NCBI GenBank assembly: GCA_964016885.1
Contig: OZ024756.1
Span: 4,774,001-4,838,000 of the forward strand
Direction: 5' to 3'
DNA length: 64,000 nucleotides
Source of the DNA: Eledone cirrhosa
Taxonomy: Eukaryota
Positions 8,014 to 64,000 of the stretch are shown here, in pieces; positions within the stretch are counted from its first letter, which is position 1, and each line of letters starts with the position of its first letter. The notes under the pieces are model-generated. The model was not told the DNA's origin. It did no database searches and worked only from the letters and a program-made list of their open reading frames with translations. Made by a program: the position numbers and the translations under genes.

Positions 8014-8073
8014 CGAAATCAAATAAAAATAACTTAACTAAAATATAAGCTGAACTTACAAAATAAAACAGTT

Positions 8074-14200: not shown

Positions 14201-15311
14201 AAGGCTACGGCACCTCTACGTATTCCTCACCGGACAACCGGTGTGGGCCTCGTTTGTGAGACGAACCTTTCCCAGACTCGTCTCACTCACCGAGCTGCAA
14301 TCCTGGGTCAAGCAAAGACCGAGAAAACTGGGCGCCTGGCACACCGAGTGTGCCCAGGCGCTCCCCGCCCTCTGGCAGGCGGATCCGGTTATCAGTGGAG
14401 ACTCCACCGCAATATTCTATAGAGGGCTGGTACGCAGCAGGTGCGACGACGCCCTCGGAGAAGCCCTAGACATGGAGGAGGACGAACTGGCCAGCCTGTT
14501 CGGTAGGACATTCAGCCCGGGACCTATGGACAACTTCCAGAAGTCCCTGGCCTGGCAGTGCTACCGAGGGGCTTTACCCGTTCGAGAATGGCTCTACAGA
14601 CACGGGCGCCCGGGTAGGGACCCCGCCAAAAAGATCTGTCCCAGATGCGTGTGCGACGAGGAAACCGTTGCACACGCATTGGTACACTGCTCGGGCGCAG
14701 CCGATCTGTGGGGCTATGTCGAACAACTGCTGTCAAGGGTGGGACCGATCCGGTTGACCACCGAGTCTATTGTAATGATCAAGCCGCCTCCCCCCTTCAA
14801 AGATGAAGCAGAGGCGGTGTTTCTGTGCGTAATAGCCATGGCGAAAGAGGTTGTATGGTGGACGCGTCTGAAAGGACTGAGGTCAGGCACCTTTCTCTCT
14901 GGCCAACAACTGGTCCGTTTCTTCCGATATCATTTCGGAAGAAGGATCAGGATGGAGAGAGAGGTGCTGCACCCCAGCCGTTTCTATGAAAGATGGGTGA
15001 AAGCGGCGAGAATGGCCCGTGTGAATGGGCCTTCACTCTAGATCAGACTATAGGTGAGGAAGATGAAAGACCAAGGGAGCACCCCTTCTCTGTGCTCCTG
15101 AGGAGAAGGGTTGCACAATTTTTTCGGGGGTGTGTGCGACCCCCCAAGGCGCCTCCTCTCTATTGAGGATTTTGTTAAAAATTTTATTTTTTGTTATATC
15201 TTATTTTATTTTTATATTTTGTTATTGCCTCCTCCTTATTGAGGACGCCTTGTTTTGTAAACTCCCCCCTTTGTACTTGTCCCACTTTTGATGCCCTAGT
15301 GGCAAATAAAA
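14201..15311 (+). mobile_element. Tx1-like non-LTR retrotransposon copy 1 (5'-truncated, ~1.1 kb)
   Basis: ORF2 C-terminus with CCHC motif and a premature TAG at 15039-15041, then 3' UTR ending GGCAAATAAAA fused directly to copy 2. Confidence 0.95.
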
Positions 15312-18300
15312 ATGGGCGTGGCCTGGGCTCAACTTGGAAGCAAGCAATGCTTCTAAATGACCTCAGGTCACAACGTATAGATGTGATGGTTATTTGCGAG
15401 GCCCGGATCAGCAACGTGCGACAGCTGGCCCCCACCTTTGATGACTTTGAGATGCACGCATCTCTCTGTCAGCCCGGAGGTGGGAGTGGAGTTGTCGTTC
15501 TGCTGCAAAAACATCTGGGTCTCGCAACACAGATGGTACATTTGGACCCGGAGGGTCGACTAGTGGTTCTGGACCTTGGCAGTGGTAAAGGCGGAGCGTT
15601 TAGGTTGGTAGCCGCCTACGGCCCTTTCGGGTCAATGCGGCCGGACTTCTTCCATCGTCTGGAGACTTTTCTAGGGACGTCCCGCTCCTTGCTATTAGTG
15701 GGGGACTGGAATGGTATCCTAGATGCACGCTGGGACTACGTAGGGGCCTGCCCCGATAGAGAGGGGGGTAATAGCCTCAAAGGGTTAATCAGTCGATTTG
15801 ACCTGGCCGATAGATATCGACTAGATTTTCCGACTGCGCCAACCTGGACTTGGGCAAATCGTAGCGGATCATCTAGGTCGTACCTAGATAGGTTCTTAGT
15901 TAGAATTAAGGATAAGGACTTTTTAAGTTGTCCAAAAATGCGCATTGTTGGCTATTCAGACCACAAATTAGTGACCTGCATGGTCAACCTTGACAGAACT
16001 CATAGACAGGGCCCCGGTTACTGGAAGCTCAACTTGTCCTTGCCGGCAAGTAGAGCCTACAGGAATCGGATTAGTACGTTAGTTAAGGAACGGTTGACTG
16101 GAGCGATCGTCAACAGCAGGTGGTGGGTATCTCTAAAGAGAGAGATTAGAGTAGTCTCGATAGAATTTAGTAAGGTTCTAGCTGCGGATAGGAATAGGAA
16201 GGAAAGGGAGCTAATAGATAGAGTAGAAGAGGCAATTAGAAGCGGCGACGTGGCCAGAGTGCTAGCGTCGAGAACGGCTTTGAGCCAGTTTTTCGACGCG
16301 AAGCACGAAGGCTGCGTTGTCCGAAGTAAAATACGTGCTCTAGGGAACGAGGGGACCAAAGCTGTTAGCTGGGCCCGCGTGACAGAGGCCAACAGTGGAA
16401 CTAAATCCACCATCCGGTCTTTGCGAGACCTGGATGGACGGGCGATTCTTGAGCCTAAGCAGATGTGTGAGGCCTTTCAAAGGCACTTTGCCCGACTGTT
16501 CGGGAGGGGCGGGGAGCCGGTTGGGAACGTGGACTTCGGACCATACCTCGACGGCCTGCCGCGCCTCTCGGACAGGGAGGCGAAGTCCTGCGAGGAGCCG
16601 ATTTCGGCCGCTGAGATAGAGGACGTGCTGAGCCAATGCGGCAAACGCAAATCCCCGGGTCTCGATGGTCTTCCTTACGAATTATATCTAGCTATGCCGG
16701 ACTTGTTCCCCGATCTCCTCGAGGCGGTCTACTGCAACTGGCAACAGAACGGGAGAATTCCCTGTACTGTGACCAAGGGCGTAGTCACGCTAGTGAGGAA
16801 GGACGAGAACAAGGGGGACGAAATAAGTAACTTCAGGCCCATAACACTGCTAAATACAGAGTTACAGATTTTGGCCAAGGTGCTAGCAAAGAGGTTGGCG
16901 CTTGTCGTGGGCAACCTGGTGGGAGATGCGCAGACATGCGCTATCCCGTCCAGGTCCATCCATGACAACCTCCACCTCATGCGATACATCATAGAGAGGG
17001 TTGGGAACGAACCCGGCTTTGGTGGGGCTCTGATCAACTTGGATCAATCTAAGGCGTTCGATAGGGTCGACCATGGTTACCTGGATGCGGTGCTAGCGGC
17101 GGCAGGCTTCGGACCCGTTTTCAGGGGCTGGATCACTGCTATGCACAGCAGCCGCATCTGCTCTAGGGTCAAGGTGAACGGCTACCTCTCGGAGCCGTTC
17201 AAAATCGCGCGGTCCATCCGACAAGGGTGCCTTCTCTCCTCCCTTCTGTATGTGTTGACTCTCGAGCCACTACTGCGGAAGTTGGAGTTGTTGCAGGGCA
17301 TCCCTTTGGAACCGGGATTGCGGAAAGCGGTGTCGGCCTACGCCGATGACGTGACAGTAATGGTGTCGACGGCCTCCGAAATCGAGGCGGTCGGCACCTT
17401 ACTGGAGGAGTACGAAAAGTTCACAGGGGCTAAGCTGAACCGGGACAAGTCGATCGGTTTGCAACTCGGCACGTGGAGGGGCAGACCGATGCCCTCCGAT
17501 AGCGTCGTCGGACGCTGGACGGAGGGCCCGGTGAAGTTGCTCGGGGTCTGGTTCGGACCGGACCTCCAGGTGGAGAAAAACTGGGCGGAGGTTACGAACA
17601 GGGTGTTTGCACTGACCCAGAAGTGGGCCAGTTGCAAACTATCCCTGAAAGGTCGGGCGGAGGTGGCGAACACCTACATAGCGTCCGTCATCTACTACCG
17701 CCTGACCGTAGTGCCCTGCCCAAGGGAAACCCTCACCAAGATGGAGCGCGCGCTCTTCCAATTCCTTTGGAAGAGGCGGGCTCCTATGGTGAGGAGATCC
17801 ATCTGCTGTCAACACCCTTCGAAAGGAGGGCTGGGGATGCCGTGGCTAATGATGCGTAAACACGCATTAAGGCTACGGCACCTCTACGTATTCCTCACCG
17901 GACAACCGGTGTGGGCCTCGTTTGTGAGACGAACCTTTCCCAGACTCGTCTCACTCACCGAGCTGCAATCCTGGGTCAAGCAAAGACCGAGAAAACTGGG
18001 CGCCTGGCACACTGAGTGTGCCCAGGCGCTCACCGCCCTCTGGCAGGCGGATACGGTTATCAGTGGAGACTCCACCGCAACATTCTATAGAGGGCTGGTA
18101 CGCAGCAGGTGCCACGACGCCCTCGGAGAAGCCCTAGACATGGAGGAGGACGAACTGGCCAGCCTGTTCGGTAGGACATTCAGCCCGGGACCTATGGGCA
18201 ACTTCCAGAAGTCCCTGGCCTGGCAGTGCTACCGAGGGGATTTACCCGTTCGAGAAAGGCTCTACAGACACGGGCGCCCGGGTAGGGACCCCGCCAAAAA

Positions 18301-18721
18301 GATCTGTCCCAGATGCGTGTGCGACGAGGAGACCGTTGCACACGCATTAGTACACTGCTCGGGCGTAGCCGATCTGTGGGGCTATGTCGAACAACTGCTG
18401 TCAAGGGTGGGACCGATCCGGTTGACCACCGAGTCTATTGTAATGATCAAGCCGCCTCCCCCCTTCAAAGATGAAGCAGAGGCGGTGTTTCTGTGCGTAA
18501 TAGCCATGGCGAAAGAGGTTGTATGGTGGACGCGTCTGAAAGGACTGAGGTCGGGCACCTTTCTCTCTGGCCAACAACTGGTCCGTTTCTTCCGATATCA
18601 TTTCGGAAGAAGGATCAGGATGGAGAGAGAGGTGCTGCACCCCAGCCGTTTCTATGAAAGATGGGTGAAAGTGGCGAGAATGGCCCGTGTGAATGGGCCT
18701 TCACTCTACATCAGACTATAG
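15311..18721 (+). pseudogene. ORF2 (APE-RT-CCHC) lacking its native start, with QGCPLS changed to QGCLLS
   Basis: The track ORF 15191..18721 is chimeric: its first ~40 codons are copy-1 3' UTR; the remainder is ORF2 missing ~9 N-terminal residues. Confidence 0.85.
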
Positions 18722-18982
18722 GTGAGGAAGATGAAAGACCAAGGGAGCACCCCTTCTCTGTGCTCCTGAGGAGAAGGGTTGCACACTTTTTTCGGGGGTG
18801 TGTGCGACCCCCCAAGGCGCCTCCTCTCTATTGAGGATTTTGTTAAAAATCTTATTTTTTGTTATATCTTATTTTATTTTTATATTTTGTTATTGCCTCC
18901 TCCTTATTGAGGACGCCTTTTTGTGTAAACTCCCCCTTTGTACTTGTCCCACTTTTGATGCCCTAGTGGCAAATAAAAGAAA
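15311..18982 (+). mobile_element. Tx1-like non-LTR retrotransposon copy 2 (truncated just inside the ORF2 N-terminus)
   Basis: Begins at the (N)ARGLG endonuclease motif; open to TAG at 18721; 3' UTR ends AAATAAAAGAAA+CC then satellite TATCTTT. Confidence 0.96.
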
Positions 18983-18984
18983 CC

Positions 18985-21900
18985 TATCTTTATATAGTGT
19001 GTGGTACTGTGTTAAATATCTTTATATAGTGTGTGGTACTGTGGTAAATATATTTATATAGTGTGTGGTACTGTGTTAAATATCTTTATATAGTGTGTGG
19101 TACTGTGGTAAATATCTTTATATAGAGTGTGGTACTGAGTTAAATATCTTTATATAGTGTGTGGTACTGTGGTAAATATCTTTATATAGAGTGTGGTACT
19201 GAGTTAAATATCTTTATATAGTGTGTGGTACTTAGTAAAATATCTTTATATAGTGTGTGGTACTGAGTTAAATATCTTTATATAGTGTGTGGTACTGTGG
19301 TAAATATCTTTATATAGTGTGTGGTACTGTGGTAAATATCTTTATATAGTGTGTGGTACTGAGTTAAATATCTTTATATAGTGTGTGGTACTCAGTAAAA
19401 TATCTTTATATAGTGTGTGGTACTGAGTTAAATATCTTTATATAGTGTGTGGTACTGAGTTAAATATCTTTATATAGTGTGTGGTACTGTGGTAAATATC
19501 TTTATATAGTGTGTAGTATTGTGGTAAATATCTTTATTTAGTGTGTGGTACTGTGGTAAATATCTTTATATAGTGTGAGGTACTGTGTTAAATATCTTTA
19601 TATAGTGTGTGGTACTGTGTTAAATATCTTTATATAGTGTGTGGTACTGTGTTAAATATCTTTATATAGTGTGTGGCACTGTGTTAAATATCTTTATATA
19701 GTGTGTGGTACTGTGGCAAATATCTTTATATAGTGTGTGGTACTGTGGTAATTATCTTTATATAGTGTGTGGTACTGTGTTAAATATCTTTATATAGTGT
19801 GTGGTACTGTGTTAAATATCTTTATATAGTGTGTGGTACTGAGTTAAATATCTTTATATAGTGTGTGGTACTGTGTTAAATATCTTTATATAGTGTGTGG
19901 TACTGTGTTAAATATCTTTATATAGTGTGTGGTACTGTGTTAAATATATTTATATAGTGTGTGGTACTGTGGTAAATATCTTTATATAGTGTGTGGTACT
20001 GTGTTAAATATCTTTATATAGTGTGTGGTACTGAGTTAAATATCTTTATATAGTGTGTGGTACTGTGGTAAATATCTTTATGTAGTGTGTGGTACTGAGT
20101 TAAATATCTTTATATAGTGTGTGGTACTGTGGTAAATATCTTTATATAGTGTGTGGTACTGAGTTAAATATCTTTATATAGTGTGTGGTACTCAGTAAAA
20201 TATCTTTATATAGTGTGTGGTACTGAGTTAAATATCTTTATATAGTGTGTGGTACTGTGGTAAATATCTTTATATAGTGTGTGGTACTGTGGTAAATATC
20301 TTTATATAGTGTGTGGTACTGAGTTAAATATCTTTATAAAGTGTGTGGTACTGTGTTAAATATCTTTATATAGTGTGTGGTACTGTGGTAAATATCTTTA
20401 TAAAGTGTGTGGTACTGTGGTAAATATCTTTATATAGTGTGTGGTACTGTGGTAAATATCTTTATATAGTGTGTGGTACTGAGTTAAATATCTTTATATA
20501 GTGTGTGGTACTGAGTTAAATATCTTTATATAGTGTGTGGTACTGTGGTAAATATCTTTATATAGTGTGTGGTACTGAGTTAAATATCTTTATATAGTGT
20601 GTGGTACTTAGTAAAATATCTTTATATAGTGTGTGTTACTGAGTTAAATATCTTTATATAGTGAGTGGTACTGTGGTAAATATCTTTATATAGTTTGTGG
20701 TACTGTGTTAAATATCTTTATATAGTGTGTGGTACCGAGTTAAATATCTTTATATAGTGTGTGGTACTGTGGTAATTATCTTTATATAGTGTGTGGTACT
20801 CAGTTAAGTATCTTTATATAGTGTGTGGTACTGTGGTAAATATCTTTATATAGTGTGTGGTACTGTGTTAAATATCTTTATATAGTGTGTGGTACTGTGG
20901 TAAATATCTTTATATAGTGTGTGGTACTGTGGTAAATATCTTTATATAGTGTGTGGTACTGTGTTAAATATCTTTATATAGTGTGTGGTACTGTGTTAAA
21001 TATCTTTATATAGTGTGTGGTACTGTGGTAAACATTTTTATATAGTGTGTGGTACTGAGTTACATATCTTTATATAGTGTGTGGTACTTAGTAAAATATC
21101 TTTATATAGTGTGTGGTACTGAGTTAAATATCTTTATATAGTGTGTGGTACTGAGTTAAATATCTTTATATAGTGTGTGGTACTGTGTTAAATATCTTTA
21201 TATAGTGTGTGGTACTGTGGTAAATATCTTTATATAGTGTGTGGTACTGTGGTAAATATCTTTATATAGTGTGTGGTACTGTGGTAAATATCTTTGTAGA
21301 GTGTGTGGTACTGTGTTAAATATCTTTATATAGTGTGTGGTACTGAGTTAAATATCTTTACATAGTGTGTGGTACTGTGTTAAGTATCTTTATATAGTGT
21401 GTGGTACTGAATTAAATATCTTTATATAGTGTGTGGTACTGAGTTAAATATCTTTATATAGTGTGTGGTACTGTCGTAAATATCTTTATATAGTGTGTGG
21501 TACTGTGTTAAATATCTTTATATAGTGTGTGGTACTGAGTTAAATATCTTTATATAGTGTGTGGTACTGTGTTAACATCTTTATATAGTGTGTGGTACTG
21601 AGTCAAATATCTTTATATAGTGTGTGGTACTGTGTTAAATATCTTTATATAGTGTGTGGTACTGAGTTAGATATCTTTATATAGTGTGTGGTACTGTGTT
21701 AAATATCTTTATATAGTGTGTGGTACTGTGTTAATATCTTTATATAGTGTGTGGTACTGTGTTAAATATCTTTATATAGTGTGTGGTACTGAGTTAAATA
21801 TCTTTATATAGTGTGTGGTACTGTGTTAATATCTTTATATAGTGTGTGGTACTGTGTTAAATATCTTTATATAGTGTGTGGTACTGAGTTAAATATCTTT

Positions 21901-22710
21901 ATATAGTGTGTGGTATTGTGTTAATATCTTTATATAGTGTGTGGTACTGTGTTAAATATCTTTATATAGTGTGTGGTACTGTGTTAAATATCTTTATATA
22001 GTGTGTGGAACTGTGTTAAATATCTTTATATAGTGTGTGGTACTGTGGTAAATATCTTTATATAGTGTGTGGTACTGTGTTAAATATCTTTATATAGTGT
22101 GTGGTACTGTGTTAAATATCTTTATATAGTGTGTGGTACTGTGGTAAATATCTTTATACAGTGTGTGGTACTGTGGTAAATATATGTATATAGTGTGTGG
22201 TACTGTGGTAAATATCTTTATATAGTGTGTGGTACTGTGGTAAATATCTTTATATAGTGTGTGGTACTGTGGTAAATATCTTTATATAGTGTGTGGTACT
22301 GTGGTAAATATCTTTATATAGTGTGTGGTACTCAGTTAAGTATCTTTATATAGTGTGTGGTATTGTGGTAAATATCTTTATATAGTGTGTGGTACTGTGG
22401 TAAATATCTATATATAGTGTGTGGTACTGAGTTAAATATCTTTATATAGTGTGTGGTACTGTGGTAAATATCTTTATATAGTGTGTGGTACTGAGTTAAA
22501 CATCTTTATATAGTGTGTGGTACTCAGTAAAATATCTTTATATAGTGTGTGGTACTGAGTTAAATATCTTTATATAGTGTGTGGTACTGTGGTAAATATC
22601 TTTATATAGTGTGTGGTACTGTGTTAAATATCTTTATATAGTGTGTGGTACTGAGTTAAATATCTTTATATGGTGTGTGGTACTGTGGTAATTATCTTTA
22701 TATAGTGTGT
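18985..22710 (+). repeat. 32-bp satellite array, block 2
   Basis: Same unit and orientation as block 1. Confidence 0.99.
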
Positions 22711-24495
22711 TCAAAATCGCGCGGTCCATCCGACAAGGGTGCCCTCTCTCCTCCCTTCTGTATGTGTTGACTCTCGAGCCACTACTGCGGAAGTTGGAGT
22801 TGTTGCAGGGCATCCCTTTGGAACCGGGATTGCGGAAAGCGGTGTCGGCCTACGCCGATGACGTGACAGTAATGGTGTCGACGGCCTCCGAAATCGAGGC
22901 GGTCGGCACCTTACTGGAGGAGTACGAAAAGTTCACAGGGGCTAAGCTGAACCGGGACAAGTCGATCGGTTTGCAACTCGGCACGTGGAGGGGCAGACCG
23001 ATGCCCTCCGATAGCGTCGTCGGACGCTGGACGGAGGGCCCGGTGAAGTTGCTCGGGGTCTGGTTCGGACCGGACCTCCAGGTGGAGAAAAACTGGGCGG
23101 GGGTTACGAACAGAGTGTTTGCACTGACCCAGAAGTGGGCCAGTTGCAAACTATCCCTGAAAGGTCGGGCGGAGGCGGCGAACACCTACATAGCGTCCGT
23201 CATCTACTACCGCCTGACCGTAGTGCCCTGCCCAAGGGAAACCCTCACCAAGATGGAGCGCGCGCTCTTCCAATTCCTTTGGAAGAGGCGGGCTCCTATG
23301 GTGAGGAGATCCATCTGCTGTCAACACCCTTCGAAAGGAGGGCTGGGGATGCCGTGGCTAATGATGCGTAAACACGCATTAAGGCTACGGCACCTCTACG
23401 TATTCCTCACCGGACAACCGGTGTGGGCCTCGTTTGTGAGACGAACCTTTCCCAGACTCGTCTCACTCACCGAGCTGCAATCCTGGGTCAAGCAAAGACC
23501 GAGAAAACTGGGCGCCTGGCACACTGAGTGTGCCCAGGCGCTCACCGCCCTCTGGCAGGCGGATCCGGTTATCAGTGGAGACTCCACCGCAACATTCTAT
23601 AGAGGGCTGGTACGCAGCAGGTGCGACGACGCCCTCGGAGAAGCCCTAAACATGGAGGAGGACGAACTGGCCAGCCTGTTCGGTAGGACATTCAGCCCGG
23701 GACCTATGGACAACTTCCAGAAGTCCCTGGCCTGGCAGTGCTACCGAGGGGCTTTACCCGTTCGAGAAAGGCTCTACAGAGACGGGCGCCCGGGTAGGGA
23801 CCCCGCCAAAAAGATCTGTCCCAGATGCGTGTGCGACGAGGAAACCGTTGCACACGCATTAGTACACTGCTCGGGCGTAGCCGATCTGTGGGGCTATGTC
23901 GAACAACTGCTGTCAAGGGTGGGACCGATCCGGTTGACCACCGAGTCTATTGTAATGATCAAGCCGCCTCCCCCCTTCAAAGATGAAGCAGAGGCGGTGT
24001 TTCTGTGCGTAATAGCCATGGCGAAAGAGGTTGTATGGTGGACGCGTCTGAAAGGACTGAGGTCGGGCACCTTTCTCTCTGGCCAACAACTGGTCCGTTT
24101 CTTCCGATATCATTTCGGAAGAAGGATCAGGATGGAGAGAGAGGTGCTGCACCCCAGCCGTTTCTATGAAAGATGGGTGAAAGTGGCGAGAATGGCCCGT
24201 GTGAATGGGCCTTCACTCTACATCAGACTATAGGTGAGGAAGATGAAAGACCAAGGGAGCACCCCTTCTCTGTGCTCCTGAGGAGAAGGGTTGCACACTT
24301 TTTTCGGGGGTGTGTGCGACCCCCCAAGGCGCCTCCTCTCTATTGAGGATTTTGTTAAAAATTTTATTTTTTGTTATATCTTATTTTATTTTTATATTTT
24401 GTTATTGCCTCCTCCTTATTGAGGACGCCTTTTTGTGTAAACTCCCCCCTTTGTACTTGTCCCACTTTTGATGCCCTAGTGGCAAATAAAAGAAA
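22711..24495 (+). mobile_element. Tx1-like non-LTR retrotransposon copy 3 (5'-truncated within RT, ~1.8 kb)
   Basis: Starts at FKIARSIRQGCPLS; open to 24233; flanked by a 16-18-bp target-site duplication TATCTTTATATAGTGT(GT). Confidence 0.96.
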
Positions 24496-24497
24496 TA

Positions 24498-27400
24498 TAT
24501 CTTTATATAGTGTGTGGTACTCAGTTAAGTATCTTTATATAGTGTGTGGTACTGTGGTAAATATCTTTATATAGTGTGTGGTACTGTGTTAAATATCTTT
24601 ATATAGTGTGTGGTACTGTGGTAAATATCTTTATATAGTGTGTGGTACTGTAGTAAATATCTTTATATAGTGTGTGGTACTGTGTTAAATATCTTTATAT
24701 AGTGTGTGGTACTGTGTTAAATATCTTTATATAGTGTGTGGTACTGAGTTAAATATCTTTATATAGTGTGTGGTACTGTGTTAAATATCTTTATATAGTG
24801 TGTGGTACTGTGTTAAATATCTTTATATAGTGTGTGGTACTGTGTTAAATATATTTATATAGTGTGTGGTACTGTGGTAAATATCTTTATATAGTGTGTG
24901 GTACTGTGTTAAATATCTTTATATAGTGTGTGGTACTGAGTTAAATATCTTTATATAGTGTGTGGTACTGTGGTAAATATCTTTATATAGTGTGTGGTAC
25001 TGAGTTAAATATCTTTATATAGTGTGTGGTACTGTGGTAAATATCTGTATATAGTGTGTGGTACTGAGTTAAATATCTTTATATAGTGTGTGGTACTCAG
25101 TAAAATATCTTTATATAGTGTGTGGTACTGAGTTAAATATCTTTATATAGTGTGTGGTACTGTGGTAAATATCTTTATATTGTGTGTGGTACTGTGGTAA
25201 ATATCTTTATATAGTGTGTGGTACTGTGGTAAATATCTTTATATAGTGTGTGGTACTGAGTTAAATATCTTTATATAGTGTGTGGTACTGTGTTAAATAT
25301 CTTTATATAGTGTGTGGTACTGTGGTAAATATCTTTATAAAGTGTGTGGTACTGTGGTAAATATCTTTATATAGTGTGTGGTACTGAGTTAAATACTTTA
25401 TATAGTGTGTGGTACTGAGTTAAATATCTTTATATAGTGTGTGGTACTGAGTTAAATATCTTTATATAGTGTGTGGTACTGTGGTAAATATCTTTATATA
25501 GTGTGTGGTACTGAGTTAAATATCTGTATATAGTGTGTGGTACTTAGTAAAATATCTTTATATAGTGTGTTGTACTGAGTTAAATATCTTTATATAGTGT
25601 GTGGTACTGTGGTAAATATCTTTATATAGTGTGTGGTACTGTGTTAAATATCTTTATATAGTGTGTGGTACTGAGTTAAATATCTTTATATAGTGTGTGG
25701 TACTGTGGTAATTATCTTTATGTAGTGTGTGGTACTCAGTTAAGTATCTTTATATAGTGTGTGGTACTGTGGTAAATATCTTTATATAGTGTGTGGTACT
25801 GTGTTAAATATCTTTATATAGTGTGTGGTACTGTGGTAAATATCTTTATATAGTGTGTGGTACTGTGGTAAATATCTTTATATAGTGTGTCGTACTGTAT
25901 TAAATATCTTTATATAGTGTGTGGTACTGTGTTAAATATCTTTATATAGTGTGTGGTACTGTGGTAAACATCTTTATATAGTGTGTGGTACTGTGGTAAA
26001 TATCTTTATACAGTGTGTGGTACTGTGGTAAATATATGTATATAGTGTGTGGTACTGTGGTAAATATTTTTATATAGTGTGTGGTACTGTGGTAAATATC
26101 TTTATATAGTGTGTGGTACTGTGGTAAATATCTTTATATAGTGTGTGGTACTGTGGTAAATATCTTTATATAGTGTGTGGTACTCAGTTAAGTATCTTTA
26201 TATAGTGTGTGGTACTGTGGTAAATATCTTTATATAGTGTGTGGTACTGTGGTAAATATCTTTATATAGTGTGTGGTACTGAGTTAAATATCTTTATATA
26301 GTGTGTGGTACTGTGGTAAATATCTTTATATAGTGTGTGGTACTGAGTTAAATATCTTTATATAGTGTGTGGTACTCAGTAAAATATCTTTATATAGTGT
26401 GTGGTACTGAGTTAAATATCTTTATATAGTGTGTGGTACTGTGGTAAATATCTTTATATAGTGTGTGGTACTGTGTTAAATATCTTTATATAGTGTGTGG
26501 TACTGAGTTAAATATCTTTATATAGTGTGTGGTACTGTGGTAATTATCTTTATATAGTGTGTGGTACTGTGTTAAATATCTTTATATAGTGTGTGGTACT
26601 GTGTTAAATATCTTTATATAGTGTGTGGTACTGTGTTAAATATATTTATATAGTGTGTGGTACTGTGGTAAATATCTTTATATAGTGTGTGGTACTGTGT
26701 TAAATATCTTTATATAGTGTGTGGTACTGAGTTAAATATCTTTATATAGTGTGTGGTACTGTGGTAAATATCTTTATATAGTGTGTGGTACTGAGTTAAA
26801 TATCTTTATATAGTGTGTGGTACTGTGTTAATATCTTTATATAGTGTGTGGTACTGAGTTAAATATCTTTATATAGTGTGTGGTACTGTGTTAAATATCT
26901 TTATATAGTGTGTGGTACTGAGTTAAATATCTTTATATAGTGTGTGGTACTGTGTTAAATATCTTTATATAGTGTGTGGTACTGTGTTAATATCTTTATA
27001 TAGTGTGTGGTACTGTGTTAAATATCTTTATATAGTGTGTGGTACTGAGTTAAATATCTTTATATAGTGTGTGGTACTGTGTTAATATCTTTATATAGTG
27101 TGTGGTACTGTGTTAAATATCTTTATATAGTGTGTGGTACTGTGTTAAATATCTTTATATAGTGTGTGGTACTGTGTTAAATATCTTTATATAGTGTGTG
27201 ATACTGTGGTAAATATCTTTATATAGTGTGTGGTACTGTGTTAAATATCTTTATATAGTGTGTGGTACTGTGTTAAATATCTTTATATAGTGTGTGGTAC
27301 TGTGGTAAATATCTTTATACAGTGTGTGGTACTGTGGTAAATATATGTATATAGTGTGTGGTACTGTGGTAAATATCTTTATATAGTGTGTGGTACTGTG

Positions 27401-27760
27401 GTAAATATCTTTATATAGTGTGTGGTACTGTGGTAAATATCTATATATAGTGTGTGGTACTGAGTTAAATATCTTTATATAGTGTGTGGTACTGTGGTAA
27501 ATATCTTTTTATAGTGTGTGGTATTGAGTTAAACATCTTTATATAGTGTGTGGTACTCAGTAAAATATCTTTATATAGTGTGTGGTACTGAGTTAAATAT
27601 CTTTATATAGTGTGTGGTACTGTGGTAAATATCTTTATATAGTGTGTGGTACTGTGGTAAATATCTTTATATAGTGTGTGGTACTGTGTTAAATATCTTT
27701 ATATAGTGTGTGGTACTGTGTTAAATATCTTTATATAGTGTGTGGTACTGAGTTAAATAT
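24498..27760 (+). repeat. 32-bp satellite array, block 3
   Basis: Same unit and orientation. Confidence 0.99.
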
Positions 27761-27967
27761 GTGGGTCCCCCCTGCGTCGGGCCCATTAACCGCGTCCTCC
27801 TAAAAAACTATCCCACCCCTCCCCCAAACACCCACACAACTGTAAGCTCCCCAACCACACAATACACTGATGCCCCCACACTTCCACAAACCACCACCCC
27901 ACCCAACAACCCATCCCCCACCCTAATGGAAATTGTGCAGCCCGATACCCGGGACGCAGAGAGGTAA
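27761..27967 (+). pseudogene. C-terminal Pro/Thr-rich fragment of putative ORF1
   Basis: Open frame ending in TAA directly upstream of, and in frame with, ORF2; conserved in copies 4, 6, 7 and 10. Confidence 0.6.
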
Positions 27968-27991
27968 GTGCCTTTTCTCTTCACCACCAAC

Positions 27992-31429: not shown

Positions 31430-31680
31430 GTGAGGAAGATGAAAGACCAAGGGAGCACCCCTTCTCTGTGCTCCTGAGGAGAAGGGTTGCACACTTTTTT
31501 CTGGGGTGTGTGCGACCCCCCAAGGCGCCTCCTCTCTATTGAGGATTTTGTTAAAAATTTTATTTTTTGTTATATCTTATTTTATTTTTATATTTTGTTA
31601 TTGCCTCCTCCTTATTGAGGACGCCTTTTTGTGTAAACTCCCCCCTTTGTACTTGTCCCACTTTTGATGCCCTAGTGGCA

Positions 31681-31686
31681 AATAAA
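31681..31686 (+). promoter_or_regulatory. AATAAA polyadenylation-signal-like hexamer at the element 3' terminus (present in all copies with a visible 3' end)
   Basis: GGCAAATAAAAGAAA terminates each copy; no long poly(A) tail follows. Confidence 0.5.
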
Positions 31687-31693
31687 AGAAATA

Positions 31694-39948: not shown

Positions 39949-39950
39949 TA

Positions 39951-47144: not shown

Positions 47145-47146
47145 TA

Positions 47147-53500: not shown

Positions 53501-54630
53501 GCGTAAACACGCATTAAGGCTACGGCACCTCTACGTATTCCTCACCGGACAACCGGTGTGGGCCTCGTTTGTGAGACGAACCTTTCCCAGACTCGTCTCA
53601 CTGACCGAGCTGCAATCCTGGGTCAAGCAAAGACCGAGAAAACTGGGCGCCTGGCACACTGAGTGTGCCCAGGCGCTCACCGCCCTCTGGCAGGCGGATC
53701 CGGTTATCAGTGGAGACTCCACCGCAACATTCTATAGAGGGCTGGTACGCAGCAGGTGCCACGACGCCCTCGGAGAAGCCCTAAACATGGAGGAGGACGA
53801 ACTGGCCAGCCTGTTCGGTAGGACATTCAGCCCGGGACCTATGGACAACTTCCAGAAGTCCCTGGCCTGGCAGTGCTACCGAGGGGCTTTACCCGTTCGA
53901 GAAAGGCTCTACAGACACGGGCGCCCGGGTAGGGACCCCGCCAAAAAGATCTGTCCCAGATGCGTGTGCGACGAGGAAACCGTTGCACACGCATTGGTAC
54001 ACTGCTCGGGCGTAGCCGATCTGTGGGGCTATGTCGAACAACTGCTGTCAAGGGTGGGACCGATCCGGTTGACCACCGAGTCTATTGTAATGATCAAGCC
54101 GCCTCCCCCCTTCAAAGATGAAGCAGAGGCGGTGTTTCTGTGCGTAATAGCCATGGCGAAAGAGGTTGTATGGTGGACGCGTCTGAAAGGACTGAGGTCA
54201 GGCACCTTTCTCTCTGGCCAACAACTGGTCCGTTTCTTCCGTTATCATTTCGGAAGAAGGATCAGGATGGAGAGAGAGGTGCTGCACCCCAGCCGTTTCT
54301 ATGAAAGATGGGTGAAAGTGGCGAGAATGGCCCGTGTGAATGGGCCTTCACTCTACATCAGACTATAGGTGAGGAAGATGAAAGACCAAGGGAGCACCCC
54401 TTCTCTGTGCTCCTGAGGAGAAGGGTTGCACACTTTTTTCGGGAGTGTGTGCGACCCCCCAAGGCGCCTCCTCTCTATTGAGGATTTTGTTAAAAATTTT
54501 ATTTTTTGTTATATCTTATTTTATTTTTATATTTTGTTATTGCCTCCTCCTTATTGAGGACGCCTTTTTGTGTAAACTCCCCCCTTTGTACTTGTCCCAC
54601 TTTTGATGCCCTAGTGGCAAATAAAAGAAA
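50598..54630 (+). mobile_element. Tx1-like retrotransposon copy 7 (longest form, ~4.03 kb)
   Basis: Junction GGTACTGTG|CAAGGGCCTAAC; ~309 bp ORF1-like frame to TAA 50906; intact ORF2; ends AAATAAAAGAAA+CC+TATCTTT. Confidence 0.97.
50931..54368 (+). CDS. Intact ORF2 (APE-RT-CCHC), copy 7
   Basis: Uninterrupted frame with GDWN, SDH, YADD and CCHC motifs. Confidence 0.95.
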   Translation: MAMLRVGCLNARGLGSTWKQAMLLNDLRSQRIDVMVICEARISNVRQLAPAFDDFEMQASLCQPGGGGGVVVLLQKHLGLATQTVHLDPEGRLVVLDLGSGKGGAFRLVAAYGPFGSMRPDSFHRLETFLGTSRSLLLVGDWNGILDARWDYVGACPDREGCNSLKGLIGRFDLADRYRLDFPTAPTWTWANRSGSSRSYLDRFLVRIKDKDFLSCPKMRMVGYSDHKLVTCMVNLDRTHRQGPGYWKLNLSLPASRAYRNRISTLVKERLTGAIVNSRWWVSLKREIRVVSIEFSKVLAADRNRKERELIDRVEEAIRRGDVARVLASRTALSQFFDAKHEGCVVRSKIRALGNEGNKAVSWARVTEANSGTKSTIRSLRDLDGRAILGPKQMCEAFQRHFARLFGRGGEPVGNVDFGPYLNGLPCLSDREAKSCEEPISAAEIEDVLSQCGKRKSPGLDGLPYELYLAMPDLFPDLLEAVYCNWQQNGRIPCTVTKGVVTLVRKDENKGDEISNFRPITLLNTELQILAKVLAKRLALVVGNLVGDAQTCAIPSRSIHDNLHLMRYIIERVGNEPGFGGALINLDQSKAFDRVDHGYLDAVLAAAGFGPVFRGWITAMHSSRICSRVKVNGYLSEPFKIARSIRQGCPLSSLLYVLTLEPLLRKLELLQGIPLEPGLRKAVSAYADDVTVMVSTASEFEAVGTLLEEYEKFTGAKLNRDKSIGLQLGTWRGRPMPSDGVVGRWTEGPVKLLGVWFGPDLQVEKNWAEVTNRVFALTQKWASCKLSLKGRAEVANTYIASVIYYRLTVVPCPRETLTKMERALFQFLWKRRAPMVRRSICCQHPSKGGLGMPWLMMRKHALRLRHLYVFLTGQPVWASFVRRTFPRLVSLTELQSWVKQRPRKLGAWHTECAQALTALWQADPVISGDSTATFYRGLVRSRCHDALGEALNMEEDELASLFGRTFSPGPMDNFQKSLAWQCYRGALPVRERLYRHGRPGRDPAKKICPRCVCDEETVAHALVHCSGVADLWGYVEQLLSRVGPIRLTTESIVMIKPPPPFKDEAEAVFLCVIAMAKEVVWWTRLKGLRSGTFLSGQQLVRFFRYHFGRRIRMEREVLHPSRFYERWVKVARMARVNGPSLYIRL

Positions 54631-54642
54631 CCTATCTTTATG

Positions 54643-55947
54643 TAGCGTCCGTCATCTACTACCGCCTGACCGTAGTGCCCTGCCCAAGGGAAACCCTCAC
54701 CAAGATGGAGCGCGCGCTCTTCCAATTCCTTTGGAAGAGGCGGGCTCCTATGGTGAGGAGATCCATCTGCTGTCAACACCCTTCGAAAGGAGGGCTGGGG
54801 ATGCCGTGGCTAATGATGCGTAAACACGCATTAATGCTACGGCACCTCTACGTATTCCTCACCGGACAACCGGTGTGGGCCTCGTTTGTGAGACGAACCT
54901 TTCCCAGACTCGTCTCACTAACCGAGCTGCAATCCTGGGTCAAGCAAAGACCGAGAAAACTGGGCGCCTGGCACACTGAGTGTGCCCAGGCGCTCACCGC
55001 CCTCTGGCAGGCGGATCCGGTTATCAGTGGAGACTCCACCGCAACATTCTATAGAGGGCTGGTACGCAGCAGGTGCGACGACGCCCTCGGAGAAGCCCTA
55101 GACATGGAGGAGGACGAACTGGCCAGCCTGTTCGGTAGGACATTCAGCCCGGGACCTATGGACAACTTCCAGAAGTCCCTGGCCTGGCAGTGCTACCGAG
55201 GGGCTTTACCCGTTCGAGAAAGGCTCTACAGACACGGGCGCCCGGGTAGAGACCCCGCCAAAAAGATCTGTCCCAGATGCGTGTGCGACGAGGAAACCGT
55301 TGCACACGCATTAGTACACTGCTCGGGCGTAGCCGATCTGTGGGGCTATGTCGAACAACTGCTGTCAAGGGTGGGACCGATCCGGTTGACCACCGAGTCT
55401 ATTGTAATGATCAAGCCGCCTCCCCCCTTCAAAGATGAAGCAGAGGCGGTGTTTCTGTGCGTAATAGCCATGGCGAAAGAGGTTGTATGGTGGACGCGTC
55501 TGAAAGGACTGAGGTCAGGCACCTTTCTCTCTGGCCAACAACTGGTCCGTTTCTTCCGTTATCATTTCGGAAGAAGGATCAGGATGGAGAGAGAGGTGCT
55601 GCACCCCAGCCGTTTCTATGAAAGATGGGTGAAAGTGGCGAGAATGGCCCGTGTGAATGGGCCTTCACTCTACATCAGACTATAGGTGAGGAAGATGAAA
55701 GACCAAGGGAGCACCCCTTCTCTGTGCTCCTGAGGAGAAGGGTTGCACACTTTTTTCGGGAGTGTGTGCGACCCCCCAAGGCGCCTCCTCTCTATTGAGG
55801 ATTTTGTTAAAAATTTTATTTTTTGTTATATCTTATTTTATTTTTAGATTTTGTTATTGCCTCCTCCTTATTGAGGACGCCTTTTTGTGTAAACTCCCCC
55901 CTTTGTACTTGTCCCACTTTTGATGCCCTAGTGGCAAATAAAAGAAA
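54643..55947 (+). mobile_element. Tx1-like retrotransposon copy 8 (5'-truncated, recombinant of copies 9 and 7)
   Basis: Separated from copy 7 by only ~10-13 bp of satellite (TATCTTTATGTAG); ORF2 C-terminal fragment to 55685. Confidence 0.95.
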
Positions 55948-55959
55948 CCTATCTTTATG

Positions 55960-57264
55960 TAGCGTCCGTCATCTACTACCGCCTGACCGTAGTGCCCTGC
56001 CCAAGGGAAACCCTCACCAAGATGGAGCGCGCGCTCTTCCAATTCCTTTGGAAGAGGCGGGCTCCTATGGTGAGGAGATCCATCTGCTGTCAACACCCTT
56101 CGAAAGGAGGGCTGGGGATGCCGTGGCTAATGATGCGTAAACACGCATTAATGCTACGGCACCTCTACGTATTCCTCACCGGACAACCGGTGTGGGCCTC
56201 GTTTGTGAGACGAACCTTTCCCAGACTCGTCTCACTAACCGAGCTGCAATCCTGGGTCAAGCAAAGACCGAGAAAACTGGGCGCCTGGCACACTGAGTGT
56301 GCCCAGGCGCTCACCGCCCTCTGGCAGGCGGATCCGGTTATCAGTGGAGACTCCACCGCAACATTCTATAGAGGGCTGGTACGCAGCAGGTGCGACGACG
56401 CCCTCGGAGAAGCCCTAGACATGGAGGAGGACGAACTGGCCAGCCTGTTCGGTAGGACATTCAGCCCGGGACCTATGGACAACTTCCAGAAGTCCCTGGC
56501 CTGGCAGTGCTACCGAGGGGCTTTACCCGTTCGAGAAAGGCTCTACAGACAGGGGCGCCCGGGTAGAGACCCCGCCAAAAAGATCTGTCCCAGATGCGTG
56601 TGCGACGAGGAAACCGTTGCACACGCATTAGTACACTGCTCGGGCGTAGCCGATCTGTGGGGCTATGTCGAACAACTGCTGTCAAGGGTGGGACCGATCC
56701 GGTTGACCACCGAGTCTATTGTAATGATCAAGCCGCCTCCCCCCTTCAAAGATGAAGCAGAGGCGGTGTTTCTGTGCGTAATAGCCATGGCGAAAGAGGT
56801 TGTATGGTGGACGCGTCTGAAAGGACTGAGGTCGGGCACCTTTCTCTCTGGCCAACAACTGGTCCGTTTCTTCCGATATCATTTCGGAAGAAGGATCAGG
56901 ATGGAGAGAGAGGTGCTGCACCCCAGCCGTTTCTATGAAAGATGGGTGAAAGTGGCGAGAATGGCCCGTGTGAATGGGCCTTCACTCTACATCAGACTAT
57001 AGGTGAGGAAGATGAAAGACCAAGGGAGCACCCCTTCTCTGTGCTCCTGAGGAGAAGGGTTGCACACTTTTTTCGGGGGTGTGTGCGACCCCCCAAGGCG
57101 CCTCCTCTCTATTGAGGATTTTGTTAAAAATTTTATTTTTTGTTATATCTTATTTTATTTTTATATTTTGTTATTGCCTCCTCCTTATTGAGGACGCCTT
57201 TTTGTGTAAACTCCCCCCTTTGTACTTGTCCCACTTTTGATGCCCTAGTGGCAAATAAAAGAAA
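55960..57264 (+). mobile_element. Tx1-like retrotransposon copy 9 (5'-truncated, ~1.3 kb)
   Basis: Same 5' junction as copy 8 at 1317-bp offset; ends AAATAAAAGAAA+TA+TATCTTT. Confidence 0.95.
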
Positions 57265-57266
57265 TA

Positions 57267-59995: not shown

Positions 59996-62900
59996 CAAGG
60001 GCCTAACTTCACCCAGGCAGGGGATTTCCCCCACCTCAAAATGATTAAGGCCCCACAGGACACCTATAAAACTTTAAAAAACAATTTTAAAGAGGACGTG
60101 GGTCCCCCCTGCGTCGGGCCCATTAACCGCGTCCTCCTAAAAAACTATCCCACCCCCTCCCCAAACACCCTCACAACTCCAAGCTCCCCAACCACACAAC
60201 ACACTGATGCCCCCACACTTCCACAAACCACCACCCCACCCAACAACCCATCCCCCACCCTAATGGAAATTGTGCAGCCCGATACCCGCGACGCAGAGAG
60301 GTAAGTGCCTTTTCTCTTCACCACCAACATGGTTATGCTAAGAGTAGGCTGTTTAAATGCGCGTGGCCTGGGCTCAACTTGGAAGCAAGCAATGCTTCTA
60401 AATGACCTCAGGTCACAACGTATAGATGTGATGGTTATTTGCGAGGCCCGGATCAGCAACGTGCGACAGCTGGCCCCCGCCTTTGATGACTTTGAGATGC
60501 ACGCATCTCTCTGTCAGCCCGGAGGTGGGGGTGGAGTTGTCGTTCTGCTGCAAAAACATCTGGGTCTCGCAACACAGATTGTACATTTGGACCCGGAGGG
60601 TCGACTAGTGGTTCTGGACCTTGGCAGTGGTAAAGGCGGAGCGTTTAGGTTGGTAGCCGCCTACGGCCCTTTCGGGTCAATGCGGCCGGACTTCTTCCAT
60701 CGTCTGGAGACTTTTCTAGGGACGTCCCGCTCCTTGCTATTAGTGGGGGACTGGAATGGTATCCTAGATGCACGCTGGGACTACGTAGGGGCCTGCCCCG
60801 ATAGAGAGGGGTGTAATAGCCTCAAAGGGTTAATCGGTCGATTTGACCTGGCCGATAGATATCGTCTAGATTTTCCGAATGCGCCAACCTGGACTTGGGC
60901 AAATCGTAGCGGATCATCTAGGTCGTACCTATATAGGCTCTTATTTAGAATTAAGGATAAGGACTTTTTAAGTTGTCCAAAAATGCGCATGGTTGGCTAT
61001 TCAGACCACAAATTAGTGACCTGCGTGGTCAACCTTGACAGAACTCATAGACAGGGCCCCGGTTACTGGAAGCTCAACTTGTCCTTGCCGGCAAGTAGAG
61101 CCTACAGGAATCGGATTAATACGTTAGTTAAGGTACGGTTGACTGGAGCGATCGTCAACAGCAGGTGGTGGGTATCTCTAAAGAGAGAGATTAGAGTAGT
61201 CTCGATAGAATTTAGTAAGGTTCTAGCTGCGGATAGGAATAGGAAGGAAAGGGAGCTAATAGATAGAGTAGAAGAGGCAATTAGAAGCGGCGACGTGGCC
61301 AGAGTGCTAGCGTCGAGAACGGCTTTGAGCCAGTTTTTCGACGCGAAGCACGAAGGCTGCGTTGTCCGAAGTAAAATACGTGCTCTAGGGAACGAGGGGA
61401 CCAAAGCTGTTAGCTGGGCCCGCGTGACAGAGGCCAACAGTGGAACTAAATCCACCATCCGGTCTTTGCGAGACCTGGATGGACGGGCCATTCTTGAGCC
61501 TAAGCAGATGTGTGAGGCCTTTCAAAGGCACTTTGCCCGACTGTTCGGGAGGGGCGGGGAGCCGGTTGGGAACGTGGACTTCGGTCCATACCTCGACGGC
61601 CTGCCGCGCCTCTCGGACAGGGAGGCGAAGTCCTGCGAGGAGCCGATTTCGGCCGCTGAGATAGAGGACGTGCTGAGCCAATGCGGCAAACGCAAATCCC
61701 CGGGTCTCGATGGTCTTCCTTACGAATTATATCTAGCTATGCCGGACTTGTTCCCCGATCTCCTCGAGGCGGTCTACTGCAACTGGCAACAGAACGGGAA
61801 AATTCCCTGTACTGTGACCAAAGACGTAGTCACGCTAGTGAGGAAGGACGAGAACAAGGGGGACGAAATAAGTAACTTCAAGCCCATAACACTGCTAAAT
61901 ACAGAGTTACAGATTTTGGCCAAGGTGCTAGCAAAGAGGTTGGCGCTTGTCGTGGGCAACCTGGTGGGAGATGCGCAGACATGCGCTATCCCGTCCAGGT
62001 TCATCCATGACAACCTCCACCTCATGCGATACATCATAGAGAGGGTTGGGAATGAACCCGGCTTTGGTGGGGCTCTGATCAACTTGGATCAATCTAAGGC
62101 GTTCGATAGGGTCGACCATGGTTACCTGGATGCGGTGCTAGCGGCGGCAGGCTTCGGACCCGTTTTCAGGGGCTGAATCACTGCTATGCACAGCAGCCGC
62201 ATCTGCTCTAGGGTCAAGGTGAACGGCTACCTCTCGGAGCCGTTCAAAATCGCGCGGTCCATCCGACAAGGGTGCCCTCTCTCCTCCCTTCTGTATGTGT
62301 TGACTCTCGAGCCACTACTGCGGAAGTTGGAGTTGTTGCAGGGCATCCCTTTGGAACCGGGATTGCGGAAAGCGGTGTCGGCCTACGCCGATGACGTGAC
62401 AGTAATGGTGTCGACGGCCTCCGAAATCGAGGCGGTCAGCACCTTACTGGAGGAGTACGAAAAGTTCACAGGGGCTAAGCTGAACCGGGACAAGTCGATC
62501 GGTTTGCAACTCGGCACGTGGAGGGGCAGACCGATGCCCTCCGATAGCGTCGTCGGACGCTGGACGGAGGGCCCGGTGAAGTTGCTCGAGGTCTGGTTCG
62601 GACCGGACCTCCAGGTGGAGAAAAACTGGGCGGAGGTTACGAACAGGGTGTTTGCACTGACCCAGAAGTGGGCCAGTTGCAAACTATCCCTGAAAGGTCG
62701 GGTGGAGGTGGCGAACACCTACATAGCATCCGTCACCTACTACCGCCTGACCGTAGTGCCCTGCCCAAGGGAAACCCTCACCAAGATGGAGCGCGCGATC
62801 TTCCAATTCCTTTGGAAGAGGCGGGCTCCTATGGTGAGGAGATCCATCTGCTGTCAACACCCTTCGAAAGGAGGGCTGGGGATGCCGTGGCTAATGATGC

Positions 62901-64000
62901 GTAAACACGCATTAAGGCTACGGCACCTCTACGTATTCCTCACCGGACAACCTGTGTGGGCCTCGTTTGTGAGACGAACCTTTCCCAGACTCGTCTCACT
63001 CACCGAGCTGCAATCCTGGGTCAAGCAAAGACCGAGAAAACTGGGCGCCTGGCACACTGAGTGTGCCCAGGCGCTCACCGCCCTCTGGCAGGCGGATCCG
63101 GTTATCAGTGGAGACTCCACCGCAACATTCTATAGAGGGCTGGTACGCAGCAGGTGCGACGACGCCCTCGGAGAAGCCCTAAACATGGAGGAGGACGAAC
63201 TGGCCAGCCTGTTCGGTAGGACATTCAGCCCGGGACCTATGGACAACTTCCAGAAGTCCCTGGCCTGGCAGTGCTACCGAGGGGCTTTACCCGTTCGAGA
63301 AAGGCTCTACAGAGACGGGCGCCCGGGTAGGGACCCCGCCAAAAAGATCTGTCCCAGATGCGTGTGCGACGAGGAAACCGTTGCACACGCATTAGTACAC
63401 TGCTCGGGCGTAGCCGATCTGTGGGGCTATGTCGAACAACTGCTGTCAAGGGTGGGACCGATCCGGTTGACCACCGAGTCTATTGTAATGATCAAGCCGC
63501 CTCCCCCCTTCAAAGATGAAGCAGAGGCGGTGTTTCTGTGCGTAATAGCCATGGCGAAAGAGGTTGTATGGTGGACGCGTCTGAAAGGACTGAGGTCGGG
63601 CACCTTTCTCTCTGGCCAACAACTGGTCCGTTTCTTCCGATATCATTTCGGAAGAAGGATCAGGATGGAGAGAGAGGTGCTGCACCCCAGCCGTTTCTAT
63701 GAAAGATGGGTGAAAGTGGCGAGAATGGCCCGTGTGAATGGGCCTTCACTCTACATCAGACTATAGGTGAGGAAGATGAAAGACCAAGGGAGCACCCCTT
63801 CTCTGTGCTCCTGAGGAGAAGGGTTGCACACTTTTTTTCGGGGGTGTGTGCGACCCCCCAAGGCGCCTCTTCTCTATTGAGGATTTTGTTAAAAATTTTA
63901 ATTTTTGTTATATCTTATTTTATTTTTATATTTTGTTATTGCCTCCTCCTTATTGAGGACGCCTTTTTGTGTAAACTCCCCCCTTTGTACTTGTCCCACT
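59996..64000 (+). mobile_element. Tx1-like retrotransposon copy 10 (3' end just outside the window)
   Basis: Same 5' junction as copy 7; 3' UTR runs to the window edge. Confidence 0.96.
60329..63766 (+). pseudogene. ORF2 inactivated by TGG>TGA at 62174-62176 and an endonuclease change YLDRF>YLYRL
   Basis: The track splits it into in-frame ORFs 60305..62176 and 62186..63766; other copies have Trp at that codon. Confidence 0.92.

Follow-up and report, generated by a model that had tools for sequence, protein, structure and literature searches.

A microsatellite-targeting Tx1-like retrotransposon caught in a 32-bp minisatellite of the octopod Eledone cirrhosa

Introduction

The Tx1 clade sits within the L1 group of retrotransposons (PMC3747384; this and the other papers are cited from passages of their text). 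Some of its families target microsatellites, namely (TC)n for Kibi, (TTC)n for Koshi and (TTCC)n or (TTTC)n for a crocodilian group, and a family with more than 20% of its flanks in one repeat type is regarded as target-specific (PMC4494074). Xenopus Tx1L inserts in Tx1D, and its endonuclease recognises about 10 bp (cited in PMC1919474). Elements of another clade, YURE and Utopia, which have a restriction-like endonuclease (RLE), are occasionally found in a U2-derived satellite (PMC4640811). Here we analyse a stretch of 64,000 nt of the 3.0-Gb genome of Eledone cirrhosa (contig C17, positions 4,774,001-4,838,000; hereafter the window), in which ten copies of an L1-group retrotransposon occupy a 32-bp tandem array.

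In octopods, 13 recently active L1-Tx1 families with 421 insertions have been described in O. vulgaris (PMC13282606). L1-Tx1 elements are expanded in coleoids (PMC8967140), and their presence in octopods and other molluscs is also reported in PMC10294476. The passages found in these three papers hold no target-site data, and the word 'target' has no occurrence in the part of PMC13282606 covered here. An initial annotation of the window took the element to be specific for the satellite monomer, and this kind of target to be undescribed for Tx1. The latter claim is weakened by the legend of Fig. 3 in PMC4494074, which lists 'Sat, satellites' among Tx1 targets. As for the former, we find that the family belongs to the known microsatellite-targeting kind of Tx1-like element and is not satellite-specific, the 32-bp minisatellite being a look-alike of its target.

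Results

Genome-wide target preference

The element has no poly(A) tail and ends in AAATAAAAGAAA followed by two nucleotides, written NN below. An exact 35-mer of this 3' end occurs 1,906 times in the genome and a 23-mer 1,974 times. NN is followed by TATHT at 1,921 of the 1,974 ends (97%), which bears out the sequence-specific insertion proposed in the initial annotation and makes it base-precise, at NN^TAT(C/A)T. At 1,537 ends (78%) the flank is a TATC/TA microsatellite (NN-TATMTATMT), against the 20% that mark a target-specific family in PMC4494074. In contrast, the satellite pattern follows seven ends, all at the array locus, or nine (0.5%) when two TATCTTTAT-G junctions are counted. By these counts most copies lie outside the satellite, and the proposed satellite targeting does not hold. 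The idea that TATCTTTATATAG is part of the element was also ruled out, since only 7 of the 1,974 3' ends carry it.

A base profile of the junctions was taken from 100 sites, the first in the list for contig C1; the 32-bp satellite contains none of them. After NN these sites read T (99), A (99), T (98), C (81) or A (17), T (97), A (90), T (96) and C (76) or A (19). The recognised motif is short and is not a property of the array monomer. By position counts, 98 of the sampled ends show TAT after NN, and one end is followed by an A run. The TATC/TA microsatellite is present at 79 of the 100 3' flanks and at 52 of the 81 resolved 5' flanks (19 sites are short of upstream DNA), with (TATC)2 at the junction in 69 sites and (TATC)4 in 49. 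Target duplications in complex sequence have their first base at the first T of TAT and are 11-20 bp long when microhomology is counted; 22 of the 81 resolved sites have no duplication.

NN is encoded by the element and inherited by source lineage. Among 51 sites whose duplication is at least 10 bp long, 39 have an NN unlike the two bases that precede the target. In 61 copies, NN also tracks the haplotype as far as 1.1 kb upstream (0 of 2,000 permutations). These two observations rule out an origin of NN from the target.

The sites are shared with sister families of 76-92% identity. The 3' end of another element lies at most 150 bp upstream in 22 of 81 copies (23 pattern hits, one of them false), and a related element lies at most 150 bp downstream in 25 of 100, on the same strand in all 25. 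The clusters on contig C1 are nested head-to-tail stacks of the family and its sister families in (TATC)n runs, with one strand per stack. We consider it very probable that the target of the family is the short motif NN^TAT(C/A)T, mainly in (TATC)n and (TA)n microsatellites, and that the array is a look-alike site.

The 32-bp array and its ten copies

The array and the copies within it are listed here, with coordinates in the window and reference positions of the element; ORF stands for open reading frame.

8074-64000 (+), continuing to window-equivalent 67,142: 32-bp tandem array (TRF), commonest unit TGTGTGGTACTGTGGTAAATATCTTTATATAG
14202-15311 (+): copy 1, 5'-truncated, reference 4604-5715, 3' end stopping at AAATAAAA
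15310-18984 (+): copy 2, reference 2048 to end, ending CC; ORF at 15347-18721 without the ORF2 start
22711-24497 (+): copy 3, reference 3934 to end, ending TA; target duplication TATCTTTATATAGTGTGT (16-18 bp)
27761-31693 (+): copy 4, reference 1791 to end, ending TA; open ORF2 at 27992-31429 (1,145 aa)
38164-39950 (+): copy 5, paired with copy 3 by duplication (1,786 nt compared, no differences)
43214-47146 (+): copy 6, paired with copy 4 by duplication (3,929 nt compared, 4 differences); open ORF2 at 43445-46882
50598-54632 (+): copy 7, reference 1689 to end, CC lineage; open ORF2 at 50931-54368
54643-55949 (+): copy 8, recombinant, with a 5' part close to copy 9 and a 3' part (from about reference 5290) close to copy 7
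55960-57266 (+): copy 9, reference 4416 to end, ending TA, its insertion point being the 3' junction of copy 7
59996-64000 (+), running to 64,031: copy 10, reference 1689 to end, ending CA, with the 5' junction of copy 7
21000-47450 (no strand): segmental duplication with a lag of 15,453 bp, about 21,000-32,000 being repeated at about 36,450-47,450

TRF on the window and downstream DNA extends the array 3.1 kb beyond the window end. Its satellite content is about 32.1 kb, or some 1,004 monomers, in eight segments, and it is a single genomic locus: all 761 genome-wide motif matches fall within the window and the next 10 kb. BLAST of this region with a full-length natural copy (5,719 nt) placed all ten copies on the + strand and inside the array, and found no element match of at least 60 bp in window positions 1-8073. 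The initial annotation was accurate on the strand and placement of the copies and on the positions of the eight 3' ends that it listed.

Nine of the ten 3' ends join the array at one phase. Copies 7 and 8 are each separated from the following copy by just 9 nt of satellite (TATCTTTAT), the junction of copy 5 reads TATTT, and the 3' end of copy 10, just past the window, reads CA and then TATCTTTATATAG in the same phase. Copy 1 stops at 15311, where copy 2 joins it by AA(A) microhomology, and its target duplication with the flank beyond copy 2 is TATCTTTA (8 bp, including 3 bp of microhomology). The apparent duplication of copy 4 is 3 bp, which is ambiguous in a periodic array, and that of copy 9 is probably 13 bp, including a 4-bp microhomology with one later change.

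Why the array is hit

We built a 12-position matrix on the 100 junctions outside the array. Among the 64 possible combinations of strand and phase, it gives its top score to the one observed (TATCTTTATATA, 10.3 bits; next 5.1). This motif, one mismatch from a mixed TATC/TA target, occurs once per monomer and on one strand only. Hence, insertions fall on one strand and in one phase.

Four unrelated arrays, with units of 48, 69, 44 and 19 bp, were entered at the same kind of motif. The 48-bp array (C1:108,700,001-108,840,000, more than 140 kb) holds three copies from two events, on one strand and in one phase, and one of them is full-length with an open ORF2; these three copies belong to the 100 sites on which the matrix was trained. 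The other three arrays carry a TAT(C/A)TT motif: the 69-bp array (C4, 76.73-76.77 Mb) has three copies, the 44-bp array (C7, 90.44-90.45 Mb) has two, in a unit that contains TATCTTTATA as the 32-bp array does, and the 19-bp array (C765) has one copy fetched of two listed.

The rate of insertion per site was compared among these targets. For (TATC)4 it is about 3.7e-3 (262,150 genomic matches; 49 of 100 junctions). This genome-wide count was used because 45 kb of unselected flank, too small a sample, held no strong sites. For the 32-bp array the rate is 5.6e-3 to 1.25e-2 (five to seven events over 886 sites, or about 560 before duplication), and for the 48-bp array 7.7e-4. At the (TATC)4 rate, the Poisson probability of six or more events is 0.11 or 0.02. 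The 32-bp array is therefore a good target per site, above its matrix score, although the window was chosen for being a cluster, which inflates the rate.

Several points weigh against the reading of the array as a look-alike of the microsatellite target, or limit it. Its rate is at least that of perfect (TATC)4 despite a lower motif score (10.3 vs 19.4 bits) and exceeds the rate of the 48-bp array about tenfold, so that the motif match alone fails to explain the density; the pre-duplication count of 560 sites used here is a rough estimate. The 100 sampled sites are the first on one contig and required an exact 35-mer, which biases them to young copies. As regards the read-through pairing proposed in the Discussion, RNA-templated extra TATC units at the junctions were sought in complex duplications and none was found.

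A rare lineage ending in CC

CC ends make up 22 of the 1,974 3' ends. The allele 5332T is present in all 14 dispersed CC copies checked and in 4 of 77 non-CC copies. Nine of the 22 CC ends lie at TATHTT sites, i.e. with T at target position 6, three of them in the 32-bp array. Outside the array, position-6 T follows 6 of 19 CC copies (5 of 18 events), compared with 80 of 1,893 others (Fisher p 1.2e-4 and 8.4e-4). Two CC events fall in the array, copies 2 and 7, which differ at position 5587 (C in copy 2).

These data raise the question of a drift in target at the level of the lineage, in which source copies would differ in their preferred site through read-through pairing of the RNA or through an endonuclease variant. 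The CC lineage would then favour TATCTT/TATATT and contribute disproportionately to satellites, which would supplement the microsatellite preference of the family and not replace it. Such drift would account for a rare, 5332T-marked class that is skewed to position-6 T outside the array and entered the array twice. However, the skew was noticed post hoc, involves small numbers and concerns one of several NN classes, and 13 of the 22 CC copies sit at ordinary sites. Furthermore, the dispersed CC copies have none of the private alleles of the array, which does not favour the array as their source. We hold the drift to be a tentative possibility, on balance unlikely. A particular form of it, somewhat more doubtful still, is that target choice is partly inherited through the RNA: the few 3'-flank bases of a transcript would pair with the nicked target, and a source at TATCTT would send daughters to similar sites. 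If true, this would be a natural and countable drift from a microsatellite to complex satellites with an unchanged endonuclease, and it could be followed through some 2,000 young copies by the NN that they inherit.

The preference for a TATC/TA target could also be an artefact of the element's own tail. In LINEs (long interspersed elements) with 3' tandem-repeat tails the repeat is made by the element, and insertion here would then be only weakly specific. This would agree with a microsatellite that is seen at 79 of 100 3' flanks yet is absent from 29 of the 81 resolved 5' flanks, as well as with the 22 sites lacking a duplication. We find it improbable, because at satellite and unique sites NN passes directly into the target without added units, duplications start at TAT, and the microsatellite is also on the 5' side in 52 of 81 sites.

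History of the array

A further alternative derives most of the cluster from one or two insertions that were multiplied as the array expanded or through duplication in the assembly. Multiplication did occur. The duplication at the 15,453-bp lag is near-perfect, with 0/1,787, 1/3,263 and 4/3,933 mismatches (5 in about 9 kb), and carries copies 3 and 4 to copies 5 and 6. Copy 8 is a recombinant of copies 7 and 9 and, to judge from its mosaic sequence, the product of unequal exchange or of assembly. Copies 7 and 10 have in common their 5' junction and a rare upstream monomer variant (three occurrences in the array), but 50 of 4,031 positions distinguish them, as does NN. A simple long duplication of these two was rejected, since the upstream satellite aligns at background level over 1,200 bp (5.4%) and the sharing is local.

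As the whole story, multiplication is excluded by six 5' breakpoints (reference 1689, 1791, 2048, 3934, 4416 and 4604), three NN lineages and differing lineage-marker alleles, and we give it very little credence. Because of these six breakpoints and three NN classes, the ten copies are attributed to about five to seven insertions, their number having been raised by duplication, unequal exchange and probable gene conversion. Copies 2 and 9 each abut the 3' end of a copy that was already there, a pattern frequent genome-wide; for copies 1 and 2, a template switch in a single event fits equally well.

Four alleles that are absent from 68-74 genomic copies are common to array copies with different 5' ends (copies 2, 3/5, 4/6, 7 and 10). 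All of them lie within reference 4790-5006 (217 bp). Gene conversion is the probable cause, and the middle of copy 2 looks converted by copy 4/6; the shared alleles may instead come from a rare source lineage. A conversion hotspot at reference 4790-5006 is possible.

Least credible of all is a satellite-specific element whose endonuclease recognises a long site in the 32-bp monomer: nine 3' ends were seen in 59 kb where 0.04 are expected at the genome mean, on one strand and in one phase (the chance that five more events share one of the 64 combinations of strand and phase is about 1e-9), and the per-site rate is as high as in the best microsatellite class, but the reading is refuted for the family as a whole by its 9 of 1,974 ends (0.5%, far under the 20% of PMC4494074) at a single locus, by a strand and phase that outside junctions predict, and by unrelated arrays entered alike.

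Structure, coding capacity and age

The full-length element (5,719 nt in one natural copy) has a 5' untranslated region (UTR) and two ORFs. ORF2 (1,145 aa) encodes an apurinic/apyrimidinic-type endonuclease (APE), a reverse transcriptase (RT) and a C-terminal zinc finger; in copy 7 the domains are Exo_endo_phos at 23-227, RVT_1 at 512-755 and zf-RVT at 976-1032. The endonuclease matches PF03372 at 23-227 with 32.2 bits (cut-off 24.5), and its catalytic N, E, D-N, D and SDH residues align with those of L1 ORF2p. The RT matches PF00078 with 92.2 bits. A CX2C..HX4C motif is visible at the C-terminus, where the PF13966 match (E 3.8e-5, 24.7 bits) is under the cut-off of 27.5. ORF1, about 595 aa in full-length copies elsewhere, has a CCHC knuckle (CX2CX4HX4C), and its match to PF00098 (E 0.041) is under the cut-off.

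The motif RPITLLNTELQIL in ORF2 (e.g. at 50931-54368) has glutamine in place of a conserved RT lysine; the context of the lysine is NTELKIL in 53 homologues and NIDAK in L1. Each of the 14 long genomic copies has the glutamine, as have most sister copies (one has K), and the family nevertheless has about 2,000 young copies. CAAGGGCC was considered as the true 5' end and ruled out, since all 20 loci examined run upstream into the ORF1 region. Several full-length 5' junctions, one of them in the 48-bp satellite, read ..ATCTCT/GGGATGG, which suggests that the 5' end of the RNA may also carry a few target-like bases.

Among 14 long copies from the genome, nine keep the 1,145-aa ORF2 open, and in two of the nine an ORF1 of 593-595 aa is present as well. 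In the array all ten copies begin at or after reference 1689 and lack ORF1 and the 5' UTR. Since ORF1 is absent from all of them, no array copy is autonomous. The three intact ORF2s of the initial annotation are indeed open (copies 4, 6 and 7), but they amount to two events, as copies 4 and 6 are duplicates, and come without ORF1; the ORF2 of copy 10 is broken into 60329-62176 and 62186-63766. Recent activity, also proposed there, applies to the family more than to this cluster. Across 78 genomic copies the median share of private alleles is 0.17% (quartiles 0.09-0.27); the array copies have 0.22-0.67%. The family is young and recently active, and the array copies are not its youngest.

Clade placement

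The best solved relative of ORF2 is human LINE-1 ORF2p (PDB 8sxt, 8uw3 and others; residues 8-857, E 8e-46), with 159 bits vs 72 bits for R2. The EN-RT (endonuclease and RT) region scores 292 bits with a coral 'Transposon TX1 uncharacterized 149 kDa protein' and 159 with human L1, the two scores coming from different databases. Among named relatives, the closest to ORF2 is an Argonauta hians sequence that aligns to 48% of the query region with 66% identity. In a quick RT tree, the family and the TX1-named protein fall in a 37-row group with an SH-aLRT (approximate likelihood ratio test) support of 86, not starred, apart from plant L1s; the tree has 50 rows (among them 16 of the 81 closest hits, most of the distant hits and five sister copies from this genome) and no curated Tx1 or animal L1 references. 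A homologue search with the TX1-named protein gave three hits and no curated references, a cluster look-up of ten hits gave no useful names, and the Atlas gave generic EN/RT clusters.

A separate ORF1 with a zinc knuckle is typical of the Tx1 clade. The hallmarks of mammalian-type L1s, a poly(A) tail and a TTTT/A target, are not those of the element. On this comparison of sequences, the element is an L1-group APE retrotransposon that appears Tx1-like. Of the placement made in the initial annotation, the APE, RT and zinc-finger architecture of the L1 group stands, and membership of Tx1 itself is likely, not proven.

Other features of the window and its surroundings

Further tandem arrays of 68, 57 and 62 bp lie 12-37 kb past the end of the 32-bp array and hold no element copy. 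An ORF of 218 aa at window positions 2201-2857 (+) has a weak DDE_3 match (E 2.2e-6, 28.0 bits vs a cut-off of 28.6) and is probably a decayed Tc1/mariner transposase. Within window positions 16500-19000, sequencing runs of two other organisms match with 0-2 differences over 111-225 bp, and eight organism codes among sequencing runs share at least 0.25 of the sampled words. These cross-organism matches may reflect close relatives, mixed samples or recent transfer.

Discussion

We propose that an active 5.7-kb element with two ORFs targets NN^TAT(C/A)T, mostly in (TATC)n and (TA)n. If it follows standard target-primed reverse transcription (TPRT; PMC1919474, PMC3649969), the APE endonuclease would nick the bottom strand a few bases from the junction (5'-..AGATA^ or ..AGAT^A), the RT would copy the RNA from the nicked 3'-OH, with frequent truncation, and a top-strand nick 11-20 bp downstream would yield the target duplication. 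Between the end of the AATAAA signal and the junction lie 5 nt; hence, the mRNA would be expected to run a few bases into the flanking TATC. Read-through pairing of these putative bases with the nicked strand might fix the start, which is the weaker part of the scheme. Identity of 3' end and target suggests annealing in several clades (PMC3649969). Since no extra templated units were found at the junctions, priming would occur within about five bases of NN. In the array, about 1,000 motif sites in presumably neutral DNA would have taken five to seven insertions, which duplication, unequal exchange and probable conversion would have turned into ten mosaic copies.

A short motif shared by microsatellites and satellites explains why same-strand, same-phase LINEs fill unrelated satellites in this genome. 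It is also a warning that a cluster in a satellite, seen in one window, should not be taken for satellite specificity. Two matters of interest are left. Our literature searches found no Tx1 element targeting (TATC)n/(TA)n in print, with Repbase, Dfam and some primary papers and supplements, which may list it, lying outside their scope. The other is the rare CC lineage skewed to TATHTT. About 2,000 near-identical 3' ends together with intact full-length copies make a natural data set, and a candidate reagent, for shifts in APE target specificity. They would serve the question of how endonuclease preference and RNA-primer pairing each act when specificity is gained or shifted.

Comparison with known systems places the element among described kinds. 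With human LINE-1 ORF2p it shares EN-RT homology and, presumably, TPRT with pairing of primer and template (PMC3649969). LINE-1 ends in poly(A) and inserts at TTTT/A, whereas the element lacks poly(A), joins its target precisely at TAT and carries a CCHC knuckle in its ORF1. Like Tx1L, it has two ORFs, an EN-RT-zinc finger protein, a short recognition site and precise insertion (PMC1919474), but the target of Tx1L is a DNA transposon and not a simple repeat. As in YURE and Utopia, a satellite is entered because it carries a look-alike of the main target (PMC4640811); those elements belong to another clade, use an RLE where this one has an APE, and have the U2 snRNA gene as their main target. 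Active L1-Tx1 elements were already known in octopods (PMC13282606, PMC8967140). Both the Tx1 families listed under 'Sat' in PMC4494074 and this one have copies in satellite DNA, which here accounts for 0.5% of 3' ends. Kibi, Koshi and the crocodilian Tx1 group (PMC4494074) are likewise APE-type L1-group elements with a microsatellite preference, and the family passes the 20% mark of that paper with 78%. Unlike them, it uses (TATC)n/(TA)n as its unit, lives in an octopod host and makes secondary use of unrelated satellites.

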